Assembly (NCBI GenBank): GCA_963805305.1
Contig: CAWDTM010000002.1
Location: forward strand, 389,346 to 453,345
Length of the DNA stretch: 64,000 nucleotides
Reading direction: 5' to 3'
Source: an uncultured Chloroflexia bacterium
Lineage (GTDB): Bacteria; Chloroflexota; Limnocylindria; QHBO01
Shown: piece by piece, positions 6,634 to 43,286 of the stretch
How positions within the stretch are numbered: position 1 is the stretch's first letter
Layout of the letters: every line of letters starts with the position of its first letter
Position numbers and translations under genes: made by a program
Notes under the pieces: generated by a model
The model's database searches: none
What the model was told of the DNA's origin: nothing
What the model saw: the letters and a program-made list of their open reading frames with translations, nothing else

Positions 6634-7473
6634 GTGGCCAGGACACCGGATCGGCGCCCCATTGGCGTCTTCGACTCCGGCGTTGGAGGCTTGACGGTCC
6701 TCTCGGAGCTGCGCCGCCGCCTGCCCGCCGAGTCGACGATCTACCTCGGCGACAACGCGCGCACGCCGTACGGGCCGCGGCCAGCCGACGAAGTACGCGC
6801 GTTCACGGACGAGTGTGTCTCCTGGCTCCTCGGACAGGACGTCAAGCTCCTCGTCATCGCCTGCAACACGGCAACCTCCCGTGCGCTGCCCCAGGTTCGC
6901 GAGCGGGCCGCGGTGCCCGTGGTGGGCGTCGTTCGCCCGGGAGGGGTGGCCGCAGCAGCCGCCACCCGGAGCAGGCACATCGGCGTCATTGCCACCGCAG
7001 GCACGGTCGAGTCGGGGGCGTATCCCGATGCGATTGAGGAGGCGGATGCACGGCTCGTCGTGACGCAGCGTGCCTGCCCGCGACTGGTCCCACTGGTGGA
7101 GGCCGGCGCCCTCGACGGGCCGGAGGCCGAGCAGGCGCTGCGCGGATACCTGGAGCCGATGCTGGCCGCGGATCCGGACATCGACACCCTCCTCCTCGGA
7201 TGCACGCACTATCCCCTCCTGCGGCCGCTCATCGAGCGCGTGGTCGGAAGCCCGGTGGCGGTCGTCGATTCCGCGTTCACCACGGCCATCGCCGTCGAGG
7301 ATCTGCTAGACGCCTTCCACGCGCGGACGGATGAAACCGAACCGGGGGATAACCGGATCGCGACCACCGGGGACGTGCAGGCCTTCGCCGCGGTCGCGGG
7401 CCGCATCTTCGGCTCGCGCCTGCCGGCGGTCGAGGAGGTGCGCGTGGACGCGACCTCGGCGCGGAGGTCCTAG
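6634..7473 (+). CDS. murI: Glutamate racemase
   Basis: IGVFDSGVGGLTV near the N-terminus, LVIACNTAT, GCTHYPLL. Classic MurI motifs. 279 aa. Confidence 0.9.
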   Translation: MARTPDRRPIGVFDSGVGGLTVLSELRRRLPAESTIYLGDNARTPYGPRPADEVRAFTDECVSWLLGQDVKLLVIACNTATSRALPQVRERAAVPVVGVVRPGGVAAAAATRSRHIGVIATAGTVESGAYPDAIEEADARLVVTQRACPRLVPLVEAGALDGPEAEQALRGYLEPMLAADPDIDTLLLGCTHYPLLRPLIERVVGSPVAVVDSAFTTAIAVEDLLDAFHARTDETEPGDNRIATTGDVQAFAAVAGRIFGSRLPAVEEVRVDATSARRS

Positions 7474-15665: not shown

Positions 15666-16109
15666 ATGACCGGCATCGACCTCCCGGCCGCACGCGCGGG
15701 GCGCGGCGGCCGGCCCACCCCCCGTGGTCCGCGTGTGCGGCTGCCCGGGAGTCGGGCGGGCGTGACCTGGCTGGTCGTGCTCGTGGTCGTGGGAGGGTTG
15801 CTGGCGATTCAGGTTGGCCGGCAGGTGTATGCGAACTATTCGATCACCCAGCAGGCGGCAGCCCTCCAGGATCGGATCACCGCCATGGAGCAGCAGAACG
15901 ATCAGCTGCGCCAGGAGCTGACGTACCTGGGATCCGACGCGTTCGTCAGCGCCGAGGCGCGTCGCCTTGCCAACCTGGGTCACTCCGGCGATCAGCTGCT
16001 CATCATCCCGCCCGGTTCCGAGGCCAGCCTGCCGGCCGCCCTGCAGGCCGCAGCACCAGCCCCCAAGCCGTTGCTGGAGCAGTGGGTGGACCTCTTCTTC
16101 GGTCGCTGA
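15666..16109 (+). CDS. Septum-formation initiator family protein (FtsB/DivIC-like)
   Basis: Single TM helix (WLVVLVVVGGLLAI). Coiled-coil segment (ALQDRITAMEQQNDQLRQEL). Conserved C-terminal motif region typical of the FtsB/DivIC family. Confidence 0.5.
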   Translation: MTGIDLPAARAGRGGRPTPRGPRVRLPGSRAGVTWLVVLVVVGGLLAIQVGRQVYANYSITQQAAALQDRITAMEQQNDQLRQELTYLGSDAFVSAEARRLANLGHSGDQLLIIPPGSEASLPAALQAAAPAPKPLLEQWVDLFFGR

Positions 16110-16438
16110 GCTTCCGCGCTGCGCTCGCATGCCGCAGAGATAGGCCGGTTTCGCGACAGCTCGCGTGTCGCACTGCGATTGCCCGACGGTTCGCTGCCAG
16201 GCGTGCGGCGGCGCGTGCACGCGTCCCTGCCAAGCGGGATGCTCCCCAATTTCGATGCGCAGCACGGCCCATTCCGCGAGGCCGAACGGCACTTGAACCG
16301 TCGAGCCTGCCGCGTGACGATGCCGGTCGGCAGGGTTGTAGACGTCAGCGACTCGTGATCGCGCGAGTCGGAAGGGTCGACGAGGCTGCGCGGAGTCTCT
16401 GACGGAAATCTGGATCCGTCGGCCCACGGAGGCGCACC

Positions 16439-16630
16439 ATGACGCTTCGAAGCACGACCCACTCGGGCCGCGTCTCCTCGTACGCGCACCTTGATCCCGC
16501 CTGGATGCTCGTCATCGCCGCGGTGGTCGTAGGGCTGCTGCTCATCCTGACCTGGGTCTTCGGGTTCAATGCAACCGGACCGTCGCTCGAGACGGTTCCC
16601 GACCCCGCGGGGCTCTATCTGTCGTTCTGA
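16439..16630 (+). CDS. Small hypothetical membrane protein (63 aa)
   Basis: ATG start and one hydrophobic helix (WMLVIAAVVVGLLLILTWVF). No other support. Confidence 0.2.
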   Translation: MTLRSTTHSGRVSSYAHLDPAWMLVIAAVVVGLLLILTWVFGFNATGPSLETVPDPAGLYLSF

Positions 16631-16698
16631 GGGCGTCGGGCGCCCTGGCGCGGTTGCCGATCGGGCGCTCCTCGGCTATAGAATTAGGCTCGCTCCGT

Positions 16699-16737
16699 GG
16701 CGGAGTAGCTCAGTGGTAGAGCAGGGGACTCATAAGC
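16699..16737 (+). pseudogene. Truncated tRNA fragment: 39-nt exact copy of the 5' half (acceptor arm, D arm, anticodon stem and loop) of the tRNA(CAU) at 19240
   Basis: GGCGGAGTAGCTCAGTGGTAGAGCAGGGGACTCATAAGC is identical at 16699-16737 and 19240-19278. The sequence diverges immediately afterwards. Confidence 0.6.
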
Positions 16738-16899
16738 TTCCGGATCTATCCGCTGTGGTCCCGAGCTCAGAGTCTGAGCACGAATCTGCTCAGTTATATG
16801 CTCTATCGCCGCCAAACCCAAGAGCACATAACTCCCGTTCGGCACATACCTGATTCAGACGCGCCCTTGGACATGGCCTCATTCGGGTAGTCTGGCAGC

Positions 16900-17250
16900 G
16901 TGTCCGCCCGAACGAAGATCCCGGAGCTCGACCTTGCCAGGATCCGGCGGTTCGTCGAGGTACGCGTGCCACCGCACGCCAGGCATCAGGTCCGACTCGA
17001 GGTGCAGGTCGAGGGCACTGGGGTCACGCTCCTCGAGCGCCGTGCGCCCTGGAGCGCCGACATCGGACCCGAGTGGACCCGTCTTCCGATCGCCCGACTC
17101 CGGTACTCGCCGACGCATGCCAAGTGGACGCTGTTCTGGCGCGATCGCCATCTGCGCTGGCATCGGTACGACAGGATCGACTCAGCTGCCAACGTCGACC
17201 CACTGCTCGCGGAGATCGACGCGGATCCGACGGCGATCTTCTGGGGCTGA
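16900..17250 (+). CDS. DUF3024-family protein
   Basis: 116 aa. Motifs …WTRLPIARLRY…KWTLFWRDRHLRWHRYD… match my recollection of DUF3024. Sits inside the lower-GC islet. Confidence 0.45.
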   Translation: MSARTKIPELDLARIRRFVEVRVPPHARHQVRLEVQVEGTGVTLLERRAPWSADIGPEWTRLPIARLRYSPTHAKWTLFWRDRHLRWHRYDRIDSAANVDPLLAEIDADPTAIFWG

Positions 17251-17353
17251 TGGCCTGAAGCGGACCCGAAAGAGGTCAGTCCCTGGTTCTCTGCGTCGCG
17301 CCGTCGAGTTAATGGCAGGGCTCGATCCTGGACCGGATGCTTGCGAACCCGGC

Positions 17354-18247
17354 CTAGGCGCGATGTGGCTTCCTCAGCCAGTAGACGAAGTCGACGAGCC
17401 AACGATCGAAGGCGGTCGCGAACTCGTCCCCAAGCGCGTTGAGGTTCGGGCCCGGAATGCCTTCGGCGGAGATCCTGTCGATAACCGAATCGACTACACG
17501 GCGCGCCTCAATCGCCCGGACCGGTGTCGACATGCCATCTCGTTCAGTGAAGCGCAGGACTTCGAGCGCGACACCGAACCGAGCCACCCAATCCGGCTGA
17601 GCTACCTGCGGGCTGAGCCCTGGTAAGACAGCGCCCTTCGAGGTCAGGAAGATGCGCCGTTCGTTGCCCGCGGTGCGTGCGGTGAGCAGCCCAGCCAGGA
17701 GCAGGGCATCCACGGCAGACGCGACGTTCGGCTTCGTGAACCGCGTCTGTCGGGCGAGATCGGCAACACTGAGCCCCCCAGGGAACGACGCGAGCAGGGC
17801 TGCCAGCACATCGGCCCGGGCATTGACCCCGAAGGCGGCACGCAGCCGAATACGGAGCCTTGCCTGTGGCAGGGCCGAGTCGATGCGTGCCTTGTTGCGG
17901 CGGGCGTAGTCGGCACGCGGCTGGGTAGCCATGGGCCAGGCTGGCCCCCCGGCGGCCGTAACGGTGGCCACGTACTCGCCGATCGCCTCCTGCGGGGTGC
18001 GGAGCTCGTGGACCACCTGCTTGAGGCGGGACCCGTTGACGTAGCGGCCATAGGTGACGCACCAGTCGGTGCTGAGATCCCGGAGGCGCGAGTCGGCATC
18101 GCCCAGCTCGGCGGTCAGAGCGATGAGCGCCTCCGGATCAACGACCGCATCGTCGCGCTCACCAACGGCATCAACACCGAGGGCGATCCATTGGATCCAG
18201 GCCCGATTGAGCAGTGCGCTCTGAAGCGCGCTAGGCGAGCGAAGCAT
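17354..18247 (-). CDS. Winged-HTH domain protein, possible antitoxin/regulator partner of the upstream nucleotidyltransferase
   Basis: Segment ADVLAALLASFPGGLSVADLARQTRFTKPNVASAVDALLLAGLL is a MarR/ArsR-like wHTH. The ORF track extends to 18373. The start at about 18247 was chosen to minimise overlap with the upstream gene and is uncertain. Confidence 0.4.
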   Translation of the reverse strand: MLRSPSALQSALLNRAWIQWIALGVDAVGERDDAVVDPEALIALTAELGDADSRLRDLSTDWCVTYGRYVNGSRLKQVVHELRTPQEAIGEYVATVTAAGGPAWPMATQPRADYARRNKARIDSALPQARLRIRLRAAFGVNARADVLAALLASFPGGLSVADLARQTRFTKPNVASAVDALLLAGLLTARTAGNERRIFLTSKGAVLPGLSPQVAQPDWVARFGVALEVLRFTERDGMSTPVRAIEARRVVDSVIDRISAEGIPGPNLNALGDEFATAFDRWLVDFVYWLRKPHRA

Positions 18248-18821
18248 CGGCGTCCTCCACGCCAAGCTCGGCGAGCGTCCGCACGAGCAACGAGCGGAAT
18301 CCTGGCGACGGATCGTGGGTGACCGTCCAGCGGGCCGCGGCGATGAGCCCGTCGTGATCCGGATCAAGTTCACGCAGGTCCTGCATGTGCCGACTGCGAG
18401 GTCCCTGGTCCACGGCCGCGTAGAGCTTGAAGCAGACCATGTCGAAGCGACCCGCGAGCCAGGTCACCAAGCCGCCAAAGTCACGGCGCTCGAGACGCTC
18501 GAAAAAGCCATTCGGGAGGCCGAGGTCAAGGAGCGACTCGGGTCCCAGGTTGATCCAATCGCTCGCAAGACCGTACGTGCGGCCGACGTCGGCGACCGCA
18601 TCGCGGAGCGGTGCTGGCATTGGTCGCATGGGCTTGACGCCATCGGGCGCCCATTCGCCCAGAAGATCGAGATCCTTCGTCGTCGGTCGCGACACCAGCT
18701 CGCGTAGGATGAGATTGCCGCCACCGATGAGGACGACTTCGTAGTGCAGACCACGGGCCTCGAGGAGCTCACCGAGTGCAGTCAGTGCGGCCTCGAGCTG
18801 GGATCGGCCGATCGATATCAT
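18231..18821 (-). CDS. Nucleotidyltransferase-fold protein (AbiEii/DUF1814-like minimal NTase)
   Basis: NTase signature hGGG-x13-DLDLL (VVLIGGGNLILRELVSRPTTKDLDLLG). 196 aa. Directly upstream of the wHTH gene on the same strand. Confidence 0.55.
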   Translation of the reverse strand: MISIGRSQLEAALTALGELLEARGLHYEVVLIGGGNLILRELVSRPTTKDLDLLGEWAPDGVKPMRPMPAPLRDAVADVGRTYGLASDWINLGPESLLDLGLPNGFFERLERRDFGGLVTWLAGRFDMVCFKLYAAVDQGPRSRHMQDLRELDPDHDGLIAAARWTVTHDPSPGFRSLLVRTLAELGVEDADASLA

Positions 18822-19239
18822 CTCGCCACCCTAGACAGGCTGCGGTGAAAAGTCAATCTATCGAATCGCTAAACTGACAGTGCCATTGGCGCGCACATAT
18901 CGCGGTTGTTCGTGATAGGCTGCACCCGGGAGGATGGAGAGGGGTGGAGGACCCCACCAGGTCGATGTGGAGGTGACCGCCAACGCCATAACCACGTTCG
19001 AGAGCTACCACGTTCCCATCGAGTAGCGAAGTCAGACCCACGGCGTGTGCTACGTGCGACTCGGCCGCAAGCCACTTCGGCGCGCAATCCGCCGGCGATG
19101 GCCGACTGGGCCGCAACTGGTCGAAATGCGAAACGGCGGCTGGCCGGGAACCCCGAGCAGTTGTGTGCTGTGGCACGGTTATGTGCTGTATCACCGGCGG
19201 TTGCGGCGGTCGCTCACGCTCAGTACTCTTGATCGACGT

Positions 19240-19314
19240 GGCGGAGTAGCTCAGTGGTAGAGCAGGGGACTCATAAGCCCTTGGTCGGTGGTTCGAATCC
19301 GCCCTCCGCTACCA
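19240..19314 (+). tRNA. tRNA with CAU anticodon (tRNA-Met, or tRNA-Ile2 if the anticodon is lysidinylated), with encoded CCA
   Basis: Acceptor stem GGCGGAG/CTCCGCT (one G:T wobble). D arm GCTC-AGTGGTAGA-GAGC. Anticodon loop CTCATAA. T arm GGTGG-TTCGAAT-CCGCC. Discriminator A then CCA. Confidence 0.9.
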
Positions 19315-19415
19315 GCCCTTCCTCCAGGCCCCACACTGATAGCTGGCGGTTCGCACCCATCCGGGTCAGAATCCGCCCAGCAGCTGCGGACCCCTGACCG
19401 CGGCGAGGAGGTGAG

Positions 19416-19841
19416 ATGGCGGACACGGAGACGATCCTGCGCGAGTCGCCCTTGTTCGCGGGCGTGGACCACCGCACCATCCATCGGGTCGTGGAGCAGG
19501 CAACCCGCCGGTCGTACCAGGCCGGGGATGTCATCGTCCGGCAGGGGGATGCGGCGTCAGCGCTCTACCTGCTGCTCAGCGGAAGGGTCTCCATCAGCCG
19601 GGAGGCGGATGGCAAGGAGACCAAGCTCGTGGAGCAGGGACCGGGGACCTTCTTCGGCGAGATGGCACTCATCGAGGATCATCCACGCACCGCGTCAGTC
19701 ACCGCGATCGAGCCGACCGAGTGCCTCCTGGTCGTCGCGTGGGAGTTCACGGCCCTGATGCATGCCCATCCGTCGGTCATAGAGGCGCTCTTCCGCGAGC
19801 TCGTGACGCGCATGCATCGCCAGGAGCACCACGTCTTCTAG
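19416..19841 (+). CDS. Stand-alone cyclic-nucleotide-binding (cNMP/CAP-effector) domain protein
   Basis: cNMP-binding signature FFGEMALIEDHPRTASVTA and the surrounding beta-roll pattern. 141 aa, no DNA-binding domain. Confidence 0.8.
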   Translation: MADTETILRESPLFAGVDHRTIHRVVEQATRRSYQAGDVIVRQGDAASALYLLLSGRVSISREADGKETKLVEQGPGTFFGEMALIEDHPRTASVTAIEPTECLLVVAWEFTALMHAHPSVIEALFRELVTRMHRQEHHVF

Positions 19842-19863
19842 CTCCGCTGTCGGAGCTCGTGCG

Positions 19864-20865
19864 ATGGTGGGATACCCTGCCGCCATGCCCTCGGACGATT
19901 CGACCCCACCGCTAGCCGGCCTCGTCCAGCCCTTTCTGGCCGCGTGCCGCGAGCAGGGCGTGGCTGACGGGGCAACGCTGGTGCTCGCCGTCTCGGGGGG
20001 CCCAGACTCCGTTGCCCTGCTGCATCTCGCCGTCCGCGCGGCGGCAGCGGCCCGATGGCATCTGCGGGTCGCGCATCTCGACCACGGCCTGCGGCCCGAA
20101 TCCGTTGACGACGCCCGCTTCGTGGCCGCCGCGGCATCCGCCCTAGGCCTGCCGGTCGACCTGCGACGGACCGATGTCGCGGCGATCGCCGCCGAACGTG
20201 GCGCTGGCCTCGAAGAAGCCGGTCGCGTGGCGCGGTACGCCTATTTCGGTGAGCTTCTTGCCGCTGCCCCGACCTCGGCGATGGCCATGACGGCGCACAC
20301 GCTCGACGACCAGGCGGAGACGGTCCTCCTGCACCTCGCCCGGGGCAGCGGGCTCGCCGGGCTCACGGGCATCGCGGCGCGCCGCGGGCAGGTCGTGCGC
20401 CCCCTGCTCGGGATGCGGCGTGCGGCACTGCGCCGGGCACTCGATGCCGAGGGGATCGCGTACCGGCTCGACGCGTCGAACGCGGACAGGCGCTTCGCCC
20501 GGAATCGTGCCCGGGCTGACCTCGTTCCGCTGCTGGAAGCGCTGCACCCGGGCGCCGCCACAGCCGTGGCGCGCTCCGCGCGGCTGGTGGCCGCCGACGC
20601 GGCGGCCCTCGAGGAGCTCGCCGCGACGCACCTCGCTGCAAGGCGTGAGCCGGGTGGCTGGCTTGCCTGGGCTTCGCCGCCGCCCCTCGCGATTGCCCGC
20701 CGCGTGCTGCGGCTCGCGATCGGGAACCCGTTCCCGCCGGCCGAGCGGATCGACGCCCTGCTGGCCGCCGCAACCCGGGATGAGGGCGGCCGGACGATCC
20801 AGCTGGGAGGAGGCCGTCGCGCCGTCATCCGCCACCATCGGCTCCGGATCGAGGACGACCGGTGA
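19864..20865 (+). CDS. tilS: tRNA(Ile)-lysidine synthetase
   Basis: PP-loop SGGPDS (VLAVSGGPDSVALLHL). TilS-like length. Conserved position immediately upstream of ftsH. Confidence 0.85.
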   Translation: MVGYPAAMPSDDSTPPLAGLVQPFLAACREQGVADGATLVLAVSGGPDSVALLHLAVRAAAAARWHLRVAHLDHGLRPESVDDARFVAAAASALGLPVDLRRTDVAAIAAERGAGLEEAGRVARYAYFGELLAAAPTSAMAMTAHTLDDQAETVLLHLARGSGLAGLTGIAARRGQVVRPLLGMRRAALRRALDAEGIAYRLDASNADRRFARNRARADLVPLLEALHPGAATAVARSARLVAADAAALEELAATHLAARREPGGWLAWASPPPLAIARRVLRLAIGNPFPPAERIDALLAAATRDEGGRTIQLGGGRRAVIRHHRLRIEDDR

Positions 20866-21050
20866 CCCATCGGTACCCTCGACACGTATGATCGTTGGGA
20901 GCATGCTCCCGGCGGCCGGGTCGAGCGCCGTTTGTTGAGCGGAGTGACGCCCACCTATACTGGCATCGTCTGCGGGGCCCGCAGACGGGCGGCGAACCCC
21001 GGCACAACCCGTTCGCCCGCCTTCCGTACAGAGGCTAGAAGAGACCCACC

Positions 21051-42307: not shown

Positions 42308-43286
42308 GCGGCCGCGCGGCGAGGCGGCTGCGGCGCTGGTGCGCTTCCTCGAGCACCTGGCAGGACGGAACGCCTCCCAGCGCACGATCGTCGAATATCG
42401 GCGAAACGCGGGCGAGTTTCTCGCGTTCCTGGAGGGCCGCGGGGTTGCCTGGCAGCGCCCGGATCGGCCAACCGTGCGCGCCTACCTCGCCGAGCTGGCT
42501 GATCGTGGCCTCGCCGCCAGCTCGGTGGGCTCGAAGCTTTCCGCGACGCGCTCGTTCTACCGGCACGCGACGCGCGAGCGCTGGCTTACCAGCGACCCGC
42601 TTGCCGGTGTTCGTACCCCGCGTCGGCCGCGGCGCCTTCCGAGGGTCCTCGGGGTCGACGAGGCGGCACGGCTGGTGATGGCGCCGCGGCGCATGGAGCG
42701 CTCCCGGCGTCGCCGCCCAGCCGCAGAGGTCGACCGGGCGCTCGTCACGCGCGACGCGGCCCTGCTCGAGCTGCTCTACGCCACGGGGATCCGGATCTCG
42801 GAAGCCGCGAGCCTGACCCTGGGGCGCGTGGACCTGGACCGACGACGCATGCGGGTCTTCGGCAAGGGCAACAAGGAGCGCGAGGCGGTCTTCGGTCGGC
42901 CCGCCGAGGGAGCCCTGCGCTCGTACCTGGCGCACGCGCGGGGAACGCTTGCCGCCCACGCCAAAGCGCCGTCGAATGACGCGGTCTTCCTCAACGCGAG
43001 CGGGGGTCCGCTGAGCGCCCGCGGCGCGCGGCTGGTGGTCGACCGCTGGGTCGAGGCATCAGGGGTTCCGCTTGGGACCTCGCCGCACACCCTCCGCCAC
43101 TCCTTCGCCACCCACCTCCTCGAAGGTGGCGCCGACCTGCGGACCGTCCAGGAGCTGCTGGGCCACGCGAACCTGGCCACGACCCAGATCTACACGCACC
43201 TCTCCGATTCGGCACTGCGCACCGCGTACCGGGCCGCGCATCCGCGCTCCACGCGACCCCCGTCGGGCCGCCCCGAGTCCACGTGA
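41904..43286 (+). CDS. xerC: Tyrosine recombinase XerC/XerD-type (chromosome dimer resolution)
   Basis: N-terminal core-binding domain (…ASQRTIVEYRRNAGEFLAFLE…). Catalytic residues R…HTLRHSFATHLLEGGADLRTVQELLGH…Y (QIYTHLS). The real start is probably about 42300, just after the topA stop. Confidence 0.85.
   Translation: MARSVRSAARAIWLLGAAGLVPSSVATDTRTAATSRRMRRRRLSSSAPVPSVAKERSSPSGAEGSGRSGAATGIRTAITRPGLARRRPRRGPMAPVRPVRRRARHQRRMAPRRTGPVAGARDGGAPRSPTGTVAERPRGEAAAALVRFLEHLAGRNASQRTIVEYRRNAGEFLAFLEGRGVAWQRPDRPTVRAYLAELADRGLAASSVGSKLSATRSFYRHATRERWLTSDPLAGVRTPRRPRRLPRVLGVDEAARLVMAPRRMERSRRRRPAAEVDRALVTRDAALLELLYATGIRISEAASLTLGRVDLDRRRMRVFGKGNKEREAVFGRPAEGALRSYLAHARGTLAAHAKAPSNDAVFLNASGGPLSARGARLVVDRWVEASGVPLGTSPHTLRHSFATHLLEGGADLRTVQELLGHANLATTQIYTHLSDSALRTAYRAAHPRSTRPPSGRPEST

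Follow-up and report, generated by a model that had tools for sequence, protein, structure and literature searches.

A cassette without an integrase at a tRNA(CAU) gene of an uncultured Chloroflexota bacterium, probably inserted in reversed orientation, and its relatives

In classical integration at tRNA genes (Williams 2002, NAR 30:866) a tyrosine integrase makes its crossover in the anticodon loop, within the symmetry of the stem, and a block of identity brought by the element rebuilds the gene to its 3′ end, whilst elements that recombine with the 5′-distal part are reported to be much less common than those that use the 3′-distal part (PMC6563490). Herein we describe a locus that is probably of the rarer kind, within a window of 64,000 nucleotides (nt), by which we mean the whole stretch of DNA that was analysed (contig CAWDTM010000002.1, positions 389,346 to 453,345, assembly GCA_963805305.1, from an uncultured Chloroflexia bacterium with the GTDB lineage Chloroflexota, Limnocylindria, QHBO01). 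In this window a 2.5 kb segment, hereafter the islet, lies between an intact tRNA gene with the anticodon CAU and an upstream copy of its 5′ half. We consider it likely that the islet is a horizontally acquired cassette, resembling a cis-mobilizable element (CIME), which arose through tyrosine-integrase recombination in the anticodon loop of tRNA(CAU) in reversed orientation. The proposed tyrosine integrase, the anticodon-loop crossover and the gene-rebuilding identity block are common to the locus and the classical case. The difference is that identity extends from the loop in the 5′ direction, reaching 3 nt past the end of the gene, and not towards the 3′ end, so that the displaced fragment would come to lie upstream and keep the native promoter.

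Several described systems share parts of this arrangement. For the elements that recombine with the 5′-distal part of tRNA genes (Zhao & Williams 2002, J Bacteriol 184:859, as related in PMC6563490 and PMC1635311), these accounts agree with our case in that the repeat is a 5′ portion of the tRNA, that the integrase (here that of four related loci, L004, L073, L082 and L100 in our numbering) lies upstream and is divergent, and that the element must supply a promoter; the window copy differs in having no integrase and its family in forming arrays of small cassettes, and as far as these accounts go we found no earlier description of a Chloroflexota host or of a tRNA-CAU/tilS target. CIMEs, which are defined by retained attL and attR sites and absent integration genes, and whose tandem accretions of the ICESt1/ICESt3 type likewise occupy one tRNA-linked site (PMC5704250), are described as decay products that lie beside integrative and conjugative or integrative and mobilizable elements at the 3′ end of the target gene. 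The window cassette appears to fit that definition, whereas in its family, which numbers dozens of cassettes devoid of an integrase, a junction of 230 nt with uniform and sharp limits lies at the 5′ half, conjugation genes are absent and mobilisation is putative. The islands and integrases associated with dusA (PMC4482086) also enter the 5′ end of their target, restore that end from the element and carry highly variable cargo; however, their target is protein-coding and the integrase, missing from the window cassettes, is universal among them. Integron arrays and the integrative mobile elements exploiting Xer (IMEX) at dif resemble the family in that recombinase-less cassettes are separated by copies of a recombination site, with junctions that in principle carry an outward promoter. 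The family differs from both, since its junctions are long, attP-like and carry half a tRNA: neither an attC-type folded site nor an IntI with attI/Pc at the array head was found in the junctions or in the arrays fetched, and the target is a tRNA anticodon stem-loop instead of a dif/XerCD site. The finding is thus a combination of three known themes, namely tRNA-targeted tyrosine-integrase integration, the rare 5′-replacing orientation, and CIME-type derivatives with tandem accretion. A literature search returned no description of this form in this host group and no mention of DUF3024, and none of the top matches for Limnocylindria, integrase and tRNA named Limnocylindria; the large cassette family at this tRNA is apparently undescribed.

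The repeat that bounds the islet is exact over 42 nt (16696-16737 = 19237-19278) and consists of CGT followed by tRNA positions 1-39. A first-pass annotation of the stretch, made from the letters alone, had recorded 39 of these nucleotides, and the identity is now lengthened. The 39-mer occurs twice in the window, with no occurrence expected (100 shuffles), whilst the 3′ half of the tRNA occurs once, i.e., the repeated block spans positions -3 to +39 and, unlike in the usual orientation of tRNA-targeting elements, does not reach the 3′ end. The window contains a single tRNA gene, at 19240-19314 with the anticodon CAT (ARAGORN; 65.6 bits against the Rfam tRNA model); the left copy scores 22 bits, below the Rfam tRNA threshold, and is a truncated 5′ half (16699-16737). 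The locus therefore shows repeats of a tRNA segment, an intact tRNA and a repeat end in the anticodon loop, as tRNA-targeting elements do, with no integrase inside the islet. The features to which the text refers below are the following.

16654-16684, plus strand: native tRNA promoter-like region upstream of the orphan half, with a -35 TTGCCG at 16654-16659 and a -10 TATAGA/TAGAAT at 16677-16684, read from the sequence.
16696-16737, plus strand: left 42-nt core, putative attL core, an orphaned native tRNA 5′ half; exact repeat, with the same 42-mer in the viral contig L004.
16738-16852, plus strand: P′ arm, a conserved low-GC block of 115 nt, 72-86% identical to the DNA after the tRNA 5′ half in L027, L071, L009, L032 and L022.
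Motif copies of the P′ arm: GTTATATGCTCT at 16793-16804 (plus strand), GTTATGTGCTCT at 16821-16832 (minus strand) and a degenerate third at about 16836-16852 (minus strand).
16900-17250, plus strand: DUF3024 gene, the first cargo gene (PF11225, 4.9e-34; PADLOC candidate PDC-S43, 4.8e-21; phrog_3467, 2.9e-12).
17354-18247, minus strand: winged helix-turn-helix (wHTH) protein, MarR/ArsR-like, in an open reading frame (ORF) that is open to 18373 (PF12802 MarR_2, 2.2e-8).
18231-18821, minus strand: DUF6036-type nucleotidyltransferase, the first gene of a two-gene minus-strand module (PF19502, 2.7e-5, just above the cutoff).
18822-19159, no strand: non-coding spacer between cargo and P arm, with no homology to related loci and no integrase remnant.
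19160-19236, plus strand: P arm, which aligns to the family consensus 'cagttatgtGCtgttCGataGttAtG..CGGTTGCCGc..CaCGCTCggTAAgCTTG'.
Motif copies of the P arm: GTTGTGTGCTGT at 19160-19171 and GTTATGTGCTGT at 19178-19189.
19201-19229, plus strand: putative element-borne promoter-like region in the P arm, with a -35 TTGCGG at 19201-19206, a 17-nt spacer and a -10 TACTCT at 19224-19229.
19237-19278, plus strand: right 42-nt core, putative attR core; exact repeat, 43/43 identical to L004 2739-2781.
19240-19314, plus strand: intact tRNA with the anticodon CAT, called Met and possibly tRNA-Ile2 (ARAGORN; Rfam 65.6 bits).

The DNA on the inner side of the two cores is conserved in other genomes. Downstream of the orphan half, the P′ arm was recovered with nhmmer at E-values of 1e-25 to 1e-32 (L027, L071, L009, L032, L022; five GTDB genomes), and upstream of the intact tRNA, 19160-19239 resembles the DNA at the same place in L032 and L022. 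The P-arm consensus precedes every intact tRNA that lies downstream of a unit (the half plus its P′ arm) and most internal junctions as well. In L071, P-arm-like DNA stands directly before a half and its P′ arm, which gives a contiguous P-half-P′ junction, and when the right edge of the islet (19130-19239) is joined to its left edge (16699-16873), the composite aligns to the consensus of 37 distinct junctions of this kind. Conservation in these junctions starts at 'cagttatgtGCtgttCG' (about -72) and stops at CATACCTG (+154), with no consensus outside; the attP of the element would accordingly measure ~230 nt, that of the window being reconstructed only by joining its two arms. Compared with the family consensus, both window arms are full length and the cores are identical, and attL and attR are thus retained. 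Identity with the tRNA ends at position 39 in the window and at 39-42 in every related junction, as it should if the attachment core lies in the anticodon stem-loop, where the first-pass annotation had put it; the anticodon stem of the window tRNA has a conserved A31-G39 mismatch. A 12-nt motif (GTTATRTGCTST / GTTATGTGCT) recurs in both arms, which hold four of its six matches in the window (16793, 19160 and 19178 on the plus strand, 16821-16832 on the minus strand), including all three exact ones, and a fifth, degenerate copy closes the P′ arm.

The two arms also account for the base composition of the islet, which had been described as lower in G+C (GC) than its surroundings. At 16700-16899 and 18700-18999 GC drops to 0.56 and 0.58, respectively, from a surrounding level of about 0.65-0.72, whereas the interior, at 0.62-0.72, is not clearly below the flanks; the third-position GC (GC3) of two of the three islet genes (0.78-0.82; the nucleotidyltransferase ORF was uncalled and so left out) is slightly below the 0.83-0.91 of the flanking genes. 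The description therefore holds at the edges and fails in between: the "lower-GC islet" is two low-GC attachment arms around cargo of ordinary GC.

A second form of the arm was seen in two Limnocylindrales metagenome-assembled genomes (MAGs; L023 5599-5900 and L106 5405-5700), in which the same truncated 5′ half is followed by a different P′ arm, similar between the two. It keeps a CACTTATAGGCTG / CAGTTATGTGGTG motif ~55 nt in, gives a weak nhmmer match (E 0.006), and represents a second attachment-site subtype at the same core.

The order MrfA-(DivIC)-tRNA-(tilS)-ftsH is widespread in Chloroflexota, and in syntenic relatives such as L028, L090, L043, L070 and L046 the tRNA gene is uninterrupted and no islet is present. 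In L028, the closest relative found (MrfA 82% identical), the intact tRNA is followed by tilS and no unit lies within 4.7 kb upstream. The distance from MrfA to the intact tRNA is 0.7-1.1 kb in L090, L043 and L070; in the window it is 3.7 kb, and the orphan half lies 1.2 kb from MrfA. Comparison of an empty with an occupied locus places the breakpoint directly, since leader and tRNA are 88% identical between L046 and L148 up to position 39, after which L046 continues with the tRNA and L148 with the P′ arm. Other relatives (L022, L032 and nine metagenome contigs) hold different cargo between the same kind of repeats. Because some syntenic relatives have an uninterrupted tRNA and others carry different cargo, the islet is an insertion and not a fixed arrangement. 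The integrative insertion proposed earlier is thereby borne out, and the relatives do not all share the same 2.5 kb segment, which had been named as the observation that would speak against it.

The orientation of this insertion can be read from elements that still carry an integrase. A scan of IMG/VR for tRNA positions 7-39 gave four contigs, three with the full tRNA and a fourth, L004, without it (ARAGORN). L004 carries CGTGGCGGAG...CATAAGCC, which is the same 42-mer and one further tRNA base, and then departs from the tRNA with no 3′ half. On the opposite strand, starting ~130 nt left of the 42-mer and divergent from it, lies a gene for a tyrosine integrase of 310 amino acids (aa; PF00589, 1.2e-31, with a SAM-like domain at the N-terminus), and ~4 kb to the right of the 42-mer a phage capsid gene is found. 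Such a layout is what would be expected of an attP that carries the tRNA 5′ half. In three Chloroflexota MAGs (L073, JAJYKX010000007.1; L082, JAKAHU010000105.1; L100, JBBSCI010000042.1) integrases 72% identical to that of L004 are located ~140 nt upstream of the intact same tRNA, again divergently. Since L004 has the 42-mer without a 3′ half beside an integrase, and L073, L082 and L100 have their integrases upstream of an intact tRNA, it is supported that elements using this core insert in the uncommon, reversed sense, so that both the promoter and the 5′ half of the gene are exchanged for those of the element; an integrase placed upstream of the restored gene is opposite to what is usually seen. 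The same two layouts agree with the earlier suggestion that the element supplied the 5′ half of the tRNA. The P arms of these integrase-bearing elements repeatedly contain an AGTTATG motif, which is related to the window-type motif.

The three MAG loci share 85-89% DNA identity with one another, over the integrase-to-tRNA block only, and were rejected as L004-type prophages, since in a tblastx comparison with L004 only the integrase is truly shared. The divergent layout recurs at a tRNA-Ala gene in another viral contig, the integrase of which is 56% identical. In a further viral contig (L188, integrase 48% identical) a tRNA-like 5′ fragment was seen by eye beside the integrase; Rfam gave it no support and it was not used as evidence.

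Taken together, these layouts suggest the following course of events. A circular element whose attP consisted of a P arm with a promoter, the core (CGT plus tRNA positions 1-39) and a P′ arm would have met the chromosomal tRNA gene, with a crossover in the anticodon loop. At the left junction, the chromosome's own promoter and 5′ half would have been stranded, forming an attL (about 16654-16852) that reads into the P′ arm and DUF3024, whilst the promoter and 5′ half of the element would have been joined to the chromosomal 3′ half to give a functional tRNA at attR (19160-19314). By this model, the right core would be what the element contributed to the tRNA that functions today, namely its 5′ half. 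The enzyme would most likely have been a helper integrase of the L004/L073 type acting in trans from co-resident phages or elements; a host recombinase, as in IMEX, or homologous recombination between the 230-nt junctions may have served instead.

The two promoter roles in this scheme are inferred from conserved hexamers and from layout. A 'TAGAAT + ~14 nt' arrangement like that before the orphan half is also found upstream of the intact same tRNA in six other loci (L006, L035, L043, L079, L090, L125), and the P arms of the family share the hexamers TTGCCG-N17-TAAGCT, placed to drive the tRNA; a scan of 16300-19600 for consensus promoters and terminators called nothing. The tRNA is thus presumably now transcribed from the P-arm promoter, and DUF3024 would be read from the stranded native one. 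The displaced promoter points through the orphan half and the P′ arm into the plus-strand DUF3024 gene, which has the same strand in at least four sister cassettes, and the consensus scan gave no terminator-like site between the native promoter (16654-16684) and DUF3024 (16900). Reversed-orientation integration may in this way hand the first cargo gene a strong constitutive promoter.

A scan for the half followed by 70-90 nt and AGAGCACATAACTCC located the unit of half and P′ arm in 60 metagenome contigs, in addition to five GTDB genomes, and gave no match among the IMG/VR viral contigs. The hosts are soil Chloroflexota (Limnocylindria/Chloroflexia-type MAGs), in which cassettes occur singly or in tandem arrays at this tRNA. 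In nine metagenome contigs an intact tRNA preceded by a P arm lies 1.26-9.9 kb downstream of the unit, and tandem sets of two or three truncated halves are present in at least seven contigs; most of these halves stand behind a P arm and are hence complete internal junctions. One cassette recurs, consisting of the unit, DUF3024, a PHD-like antitoxin with a HicA-like toxin (PF12910, 1.7e-15; HicA, 1e-3) and a P arm. It is found beside the tRNA, ahead of another unit, following a native-type flank and following a P arm, with homology starting exactly at nucleotide 1 of the tRNA half, and the window cassette follows the same plan, with a DUF3024 that is 78-85% identical. Hybrid junctions were present in L137 and L128, in which an L073-type P arm (L137) or a truncated integrase is followed by the half and then by a window-type P′ arm, and which show that both element types recombine at the same core.

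These observations bear on whether the islet is merely an inert wreck, i.e., a prophage or island that integrated once, lost its integrase and most of its genes, and kept its edges only because the P arm drives an essential tRNA. The first-pass annotation had regarded it as a decayed remnant without an integrase, and the second half of that statement stands: tblastn with a related integrase matched, besides a chromosomal Xer-like gene, only 19090-18917 at E=30, a profile of six related integrases run at maximum sensitivity on the six-frame translation of 16000-20000 gave nothing at E<=1, and the ORF at 18853-19194 has no Pfam match, so that an integrase pseudogene in 16738-16900 or 18822-19239, a candidate named earlier, was rejected. 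Loss and decay are further suggested by independent truncations of integrases beside P arms (L128 and L137), by two degenerate motif copies out of five in the window, and by cargo (the nucleotidyltransferase and wHTH genes) that is unique to this window. The decay itself does not agree with the arms, which are full length, nor with the ~65 related cassette contigs that lack an integrase as well. Selection for tRNA expression can explain neither the conserved P′ arm at attL nor the internal junctions, and independent deletions would have produced ragged ends, whereas 37 distinct junctions have the same P-arm left edge with unrelated DNA beyond it. Nor would a wreck be expected to leave the same cassette at different array positions, or a unit that is more conserved than the neighbouring core genes (the unit of the window is 86% identical to that of L027, the adjacent tilS ~69% at the DNA level). 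We therefore regard a one-off wreck as unlikely. In view of the uniform arm boundaries, of a unit that has changed less than core genes, of the different array positions of the cassette and of the hybrid junctions, the islet seems better described as a member of a propagating, integrase-less family, and its cassettes are possibly mobilised in trans.

If the family propagates, an enzyme must be provided, and we searched for it in 60 metagenome contigs, seven genome loci and the 16-20 kb part of the window, using tblastn with three tyrosine recombinases and the six-frame profile. The related contigs gave only two N-terminal integrase stubs, each abutting a half (L128, L137), and an Xer-like fragment at a contig end. 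IMEX arrays at dif resemble tandem recombinase-less units flanked by copies of the target, and the absence of an integrase from every cassette might likewise point to a platform on which a host tyrosine recombinase, either an Xer-like enzyme or a dedicated chromosomal integrase, moves the cassettes in place of phage integrases. The window encodes such an enzyme, an Xer-type tyrosine recombinase of 303 aa at 42336-43244 on the plus strand (PF00589, 7.9e-44, with a SAM-like N-terminal domain), which is 27% identical to the L004 integrase; it is probably the housekeeping XerC/D and, as the sole recombinase in the window, a formal candidate for acting on the junctions. The target, however, is a tRNA anticodon stem-loop with long arms and not a dif-like 28-mer, the exact core and a related AGTTATG... 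motif in the arms are shared with integrase-bearing elements, the hybrid junctions tie the two element types together, and no resident integrase was found at either end of any array fetched. A host-driven platform thus appears somewhat less probable even than the wreck, and a helper of the L004/L073 type agrees better with the shared core.

Several points weigh against our preferred account of a cassette placed by such a helper. No integrase was found beside any window-type P arm in ~65 contigs, in a screen that covered the tyrosine family of recombinases. The L004-type integrases are short and Xer-like, without an obvious arm-binding domain that could hold the repeated motif. Instead of a free attP, L004 might represent the boundary of two elements in tandem, and as the related loci were examined in stretches of up to 8 kb, the far ends (attL) of the integrase-bearing elements fall outside them. 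The exact empty site of this organism (left flank plus full tRNA, 61 nt) had no match in the genome or metagenome collections. The nucleotidyltransferase/wHTH cargo has no counterpart in other cassettes among the related contigs, and the third P′ motif copy and the first P motif copy of the window deviate from the consensus, so that this particular cassette may no longer be mobile.

Beyond the islet itself, we tentatively raise a broader possibility, which we hold to be plausible but doubtful: that the cassettes constitute an undescribed array platform on an essential tRNA gene of soil Chloroflexota. In such a platform, integrase-less cassettes, each bounded by a junction of ~230 nt with a tRNA promoter and a tRNA(CAU) 5′ half, would be stacked in tandem upstream of tRNA-tilS-ftsH and captured and shuffled in trans by short Xer-like phage integrases, with every junction lending a strong tRNA promoter to the next cassette, in an integron-like manner that would have evolved from tRNA integration of reversed polarity. 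Island-finding tools and textbook models expect the 3′ end of the tRNA to be replaced and an integrase to adjoin, and both the window locus and the family of more than 60 contigs break these expectations: an essential tRNA gene seems to have received a new front half and promoter, its own promoter, pushed aside, aims into cargo, and cassettes without a recombinase have uniform, full-length attachment sites. If they are mobilised in trans, they would represent an overlooked route of accessory-gene exchange in abundant uncultured soil Chloroflexota, carrying toxin-antitoxin pairs, a defence-candidate gene, transporters, hydrolases and, by translation only, hydrogenase-like subunits. The family would also be a natural source of attP/attB pairs, together with short integrases whose tRNA target is both defined and conserved.

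The conservation of the 155-nt unit could alternatively reflect a function of its transcript, with the half and P′ arm forming an RNA gene or leader (a tRNA-like small RNA, or a 5′ leader of DUF3024) that was duplicated for regulation. A promoter-like element precedes every unit, DUF3024 is often next on the same strand, and RNAalifold can pair the 5′ strand of the acceptor with ACTCCG in the P′ arm. In the alignment used (A3) the predicted pairs are columns 3-8/136-141 (CGGAGT with the invariant ACTCCG; about 16701-16706 and ~16832-16837 in the window), 10-13/127-130 and 14-18/52-56, with parts of the D-arm paired to other invariant P′ segments. All these pairs are invariant, and the covariation term over 21 diverse units is -0.39 kcal/mol, nearly all pairs being without change. 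The repetition of the motif in the P arm, upstream of the promoter, is unexplained by an RNA, the unit is absent from the closest relatives, and Rfam gives only a sub-threshold tRNA match, all of which makes a functional RNA very improbable as the reason for the duplication, though the predicted pseudo-acceptor stem of the orphan half could matter for the processing of read-through transcripts. Least credible of all is a local duplication or illegitimate insertion without a mobile element (e.g., tandem tRNA duplication followed by insertion or deletion), for which tandem full tRNA copies in one Anaerolineales MAG (L029) may be cited, but which is at odds with a breakpoint at tRNA position 39-42 that recurs with the same arms in more than 60 independent contigs and with the same 42-mer adjoining an integrase in L004.

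The islet contains three ORFs, all non-core and none of them a recombinase or transfer protein (Pfam, NCBIfam, PADLOC, PHROG). It is bounded on both sides by core genes, which encode an MrfA-type helicase, DivIC and a 63-aa membrane ORF on the left and a cyclic-nucleotide (cNMP)-binding protein, TilS and FtsH on the right, so that the earlier naming of DUF3024, nucleotidyltransferase and wHTH genes in place of core genes agrees with the Pfam matches. In L130, L154, L158 and L175 a homologue of the DUF3024 protein, 78-85% identical, is encoded downstream of the unit, again at an offset of +208 nt. The nucleotidyltransferase/wHTH module occupies the position of the PHD-like/HicA-like toxin-antitoxin pair of the sister cassettes; the wHTH gene, read from its ATG at 18247, shares its first 17 nt with the 3′ end of the nucleotidyltransferase gene that precedes it. 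The wHTH protein matched an ArsR/SmtB HTH model of NCBIfam below its cutoff (4e-5), had no homologue in the 60 related metagenome contigs and gave weak MarR matches only among solved structures, where none of the three cargo proteins had a significant match; for the nucleotidyltransferase, PADLOC, NCBIfam, PHROG and PDB returned no match.

Cargo elsewhere in the family is varied. An alpha/beta hydrolase cluster is confirmed (PF12697), whilst the other names were read from translations only, without confirmation by family searches: a tctCBA-like transporter (L032), ArsR-type regulators, oxidoreductases and hydrogenase-4/complex I-like subunits (L129). The last of these belong to an islet of 9.9 kb (L129 1641-11585, Ga0070706_100005554) between a native-flanked unit and an intact tRNA preceded by a P arm, in which translation, without a Pfam check, gives an ArsR-type regulator, hydrogenase-4/complex I-like membrane subunits, a 4Fe-4S protein and a NuoB-like subunit; the site thus also hosts metabolic operons.

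The tRNA gene itself stands directly upstream of tilS (19864-20865) in the window and in at least 10 relatives (L008, L011, L024, L027, L028, L046, L047, L074, L081, L089), and a 33-mer of its D-arm and anticodon arm is conserved across Chloroflexota, Verrucomicrobiota, Cyanobacteria and Eremiobacterota. We take it to resemble the E. coli tRNA-Ile2 (ileX), and it may be the lysidine-modified tRNA-Ile2, the substrate of TilS itself, rather than tRNA-Met, in which case the element would now govern expression of the single essential substrate of that enzyme; a BLAST search against E. coli tRNAs had tRNA-Phe as its best match (84%), which carries no information on tRNA identity. In L029 (CAZLNX010000208.1) two full copies of a closely related CAU tRNA (893-970 and 1881-1960) lie 988 nt apart and differ slightly in the 3′ half, which makes this a tandem duplication rather than a half-copy.

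Two further contigs show irregular structure near the junction. In L027 (6938-7200, VBJP01000131.1) tilS has lost its first ~45 codons, and with them most of the PP-loop motif, and follows immediately on the end of the P′ arm at 7090; the contig has no islet cargo, intact tRNA or cNMP gene. A metagenome contig (L135, 1-257) is 100% identical to L027 up to the fusion point and then continues differently, and the fusion represents either a genuine deletion or a chimera that the assembly created where the arm is repeated. Finally, a contig of 1652 nt from Logan (L001, ERR11523651) corresponds to ~19360-21010 of the window, with identical cNMP-binding and TilS proteins, and begins only ~46 nt past the 3′ end of the tRNA; repeats or variant structure at this place may be why the assembly breaks off next to the tRNA.

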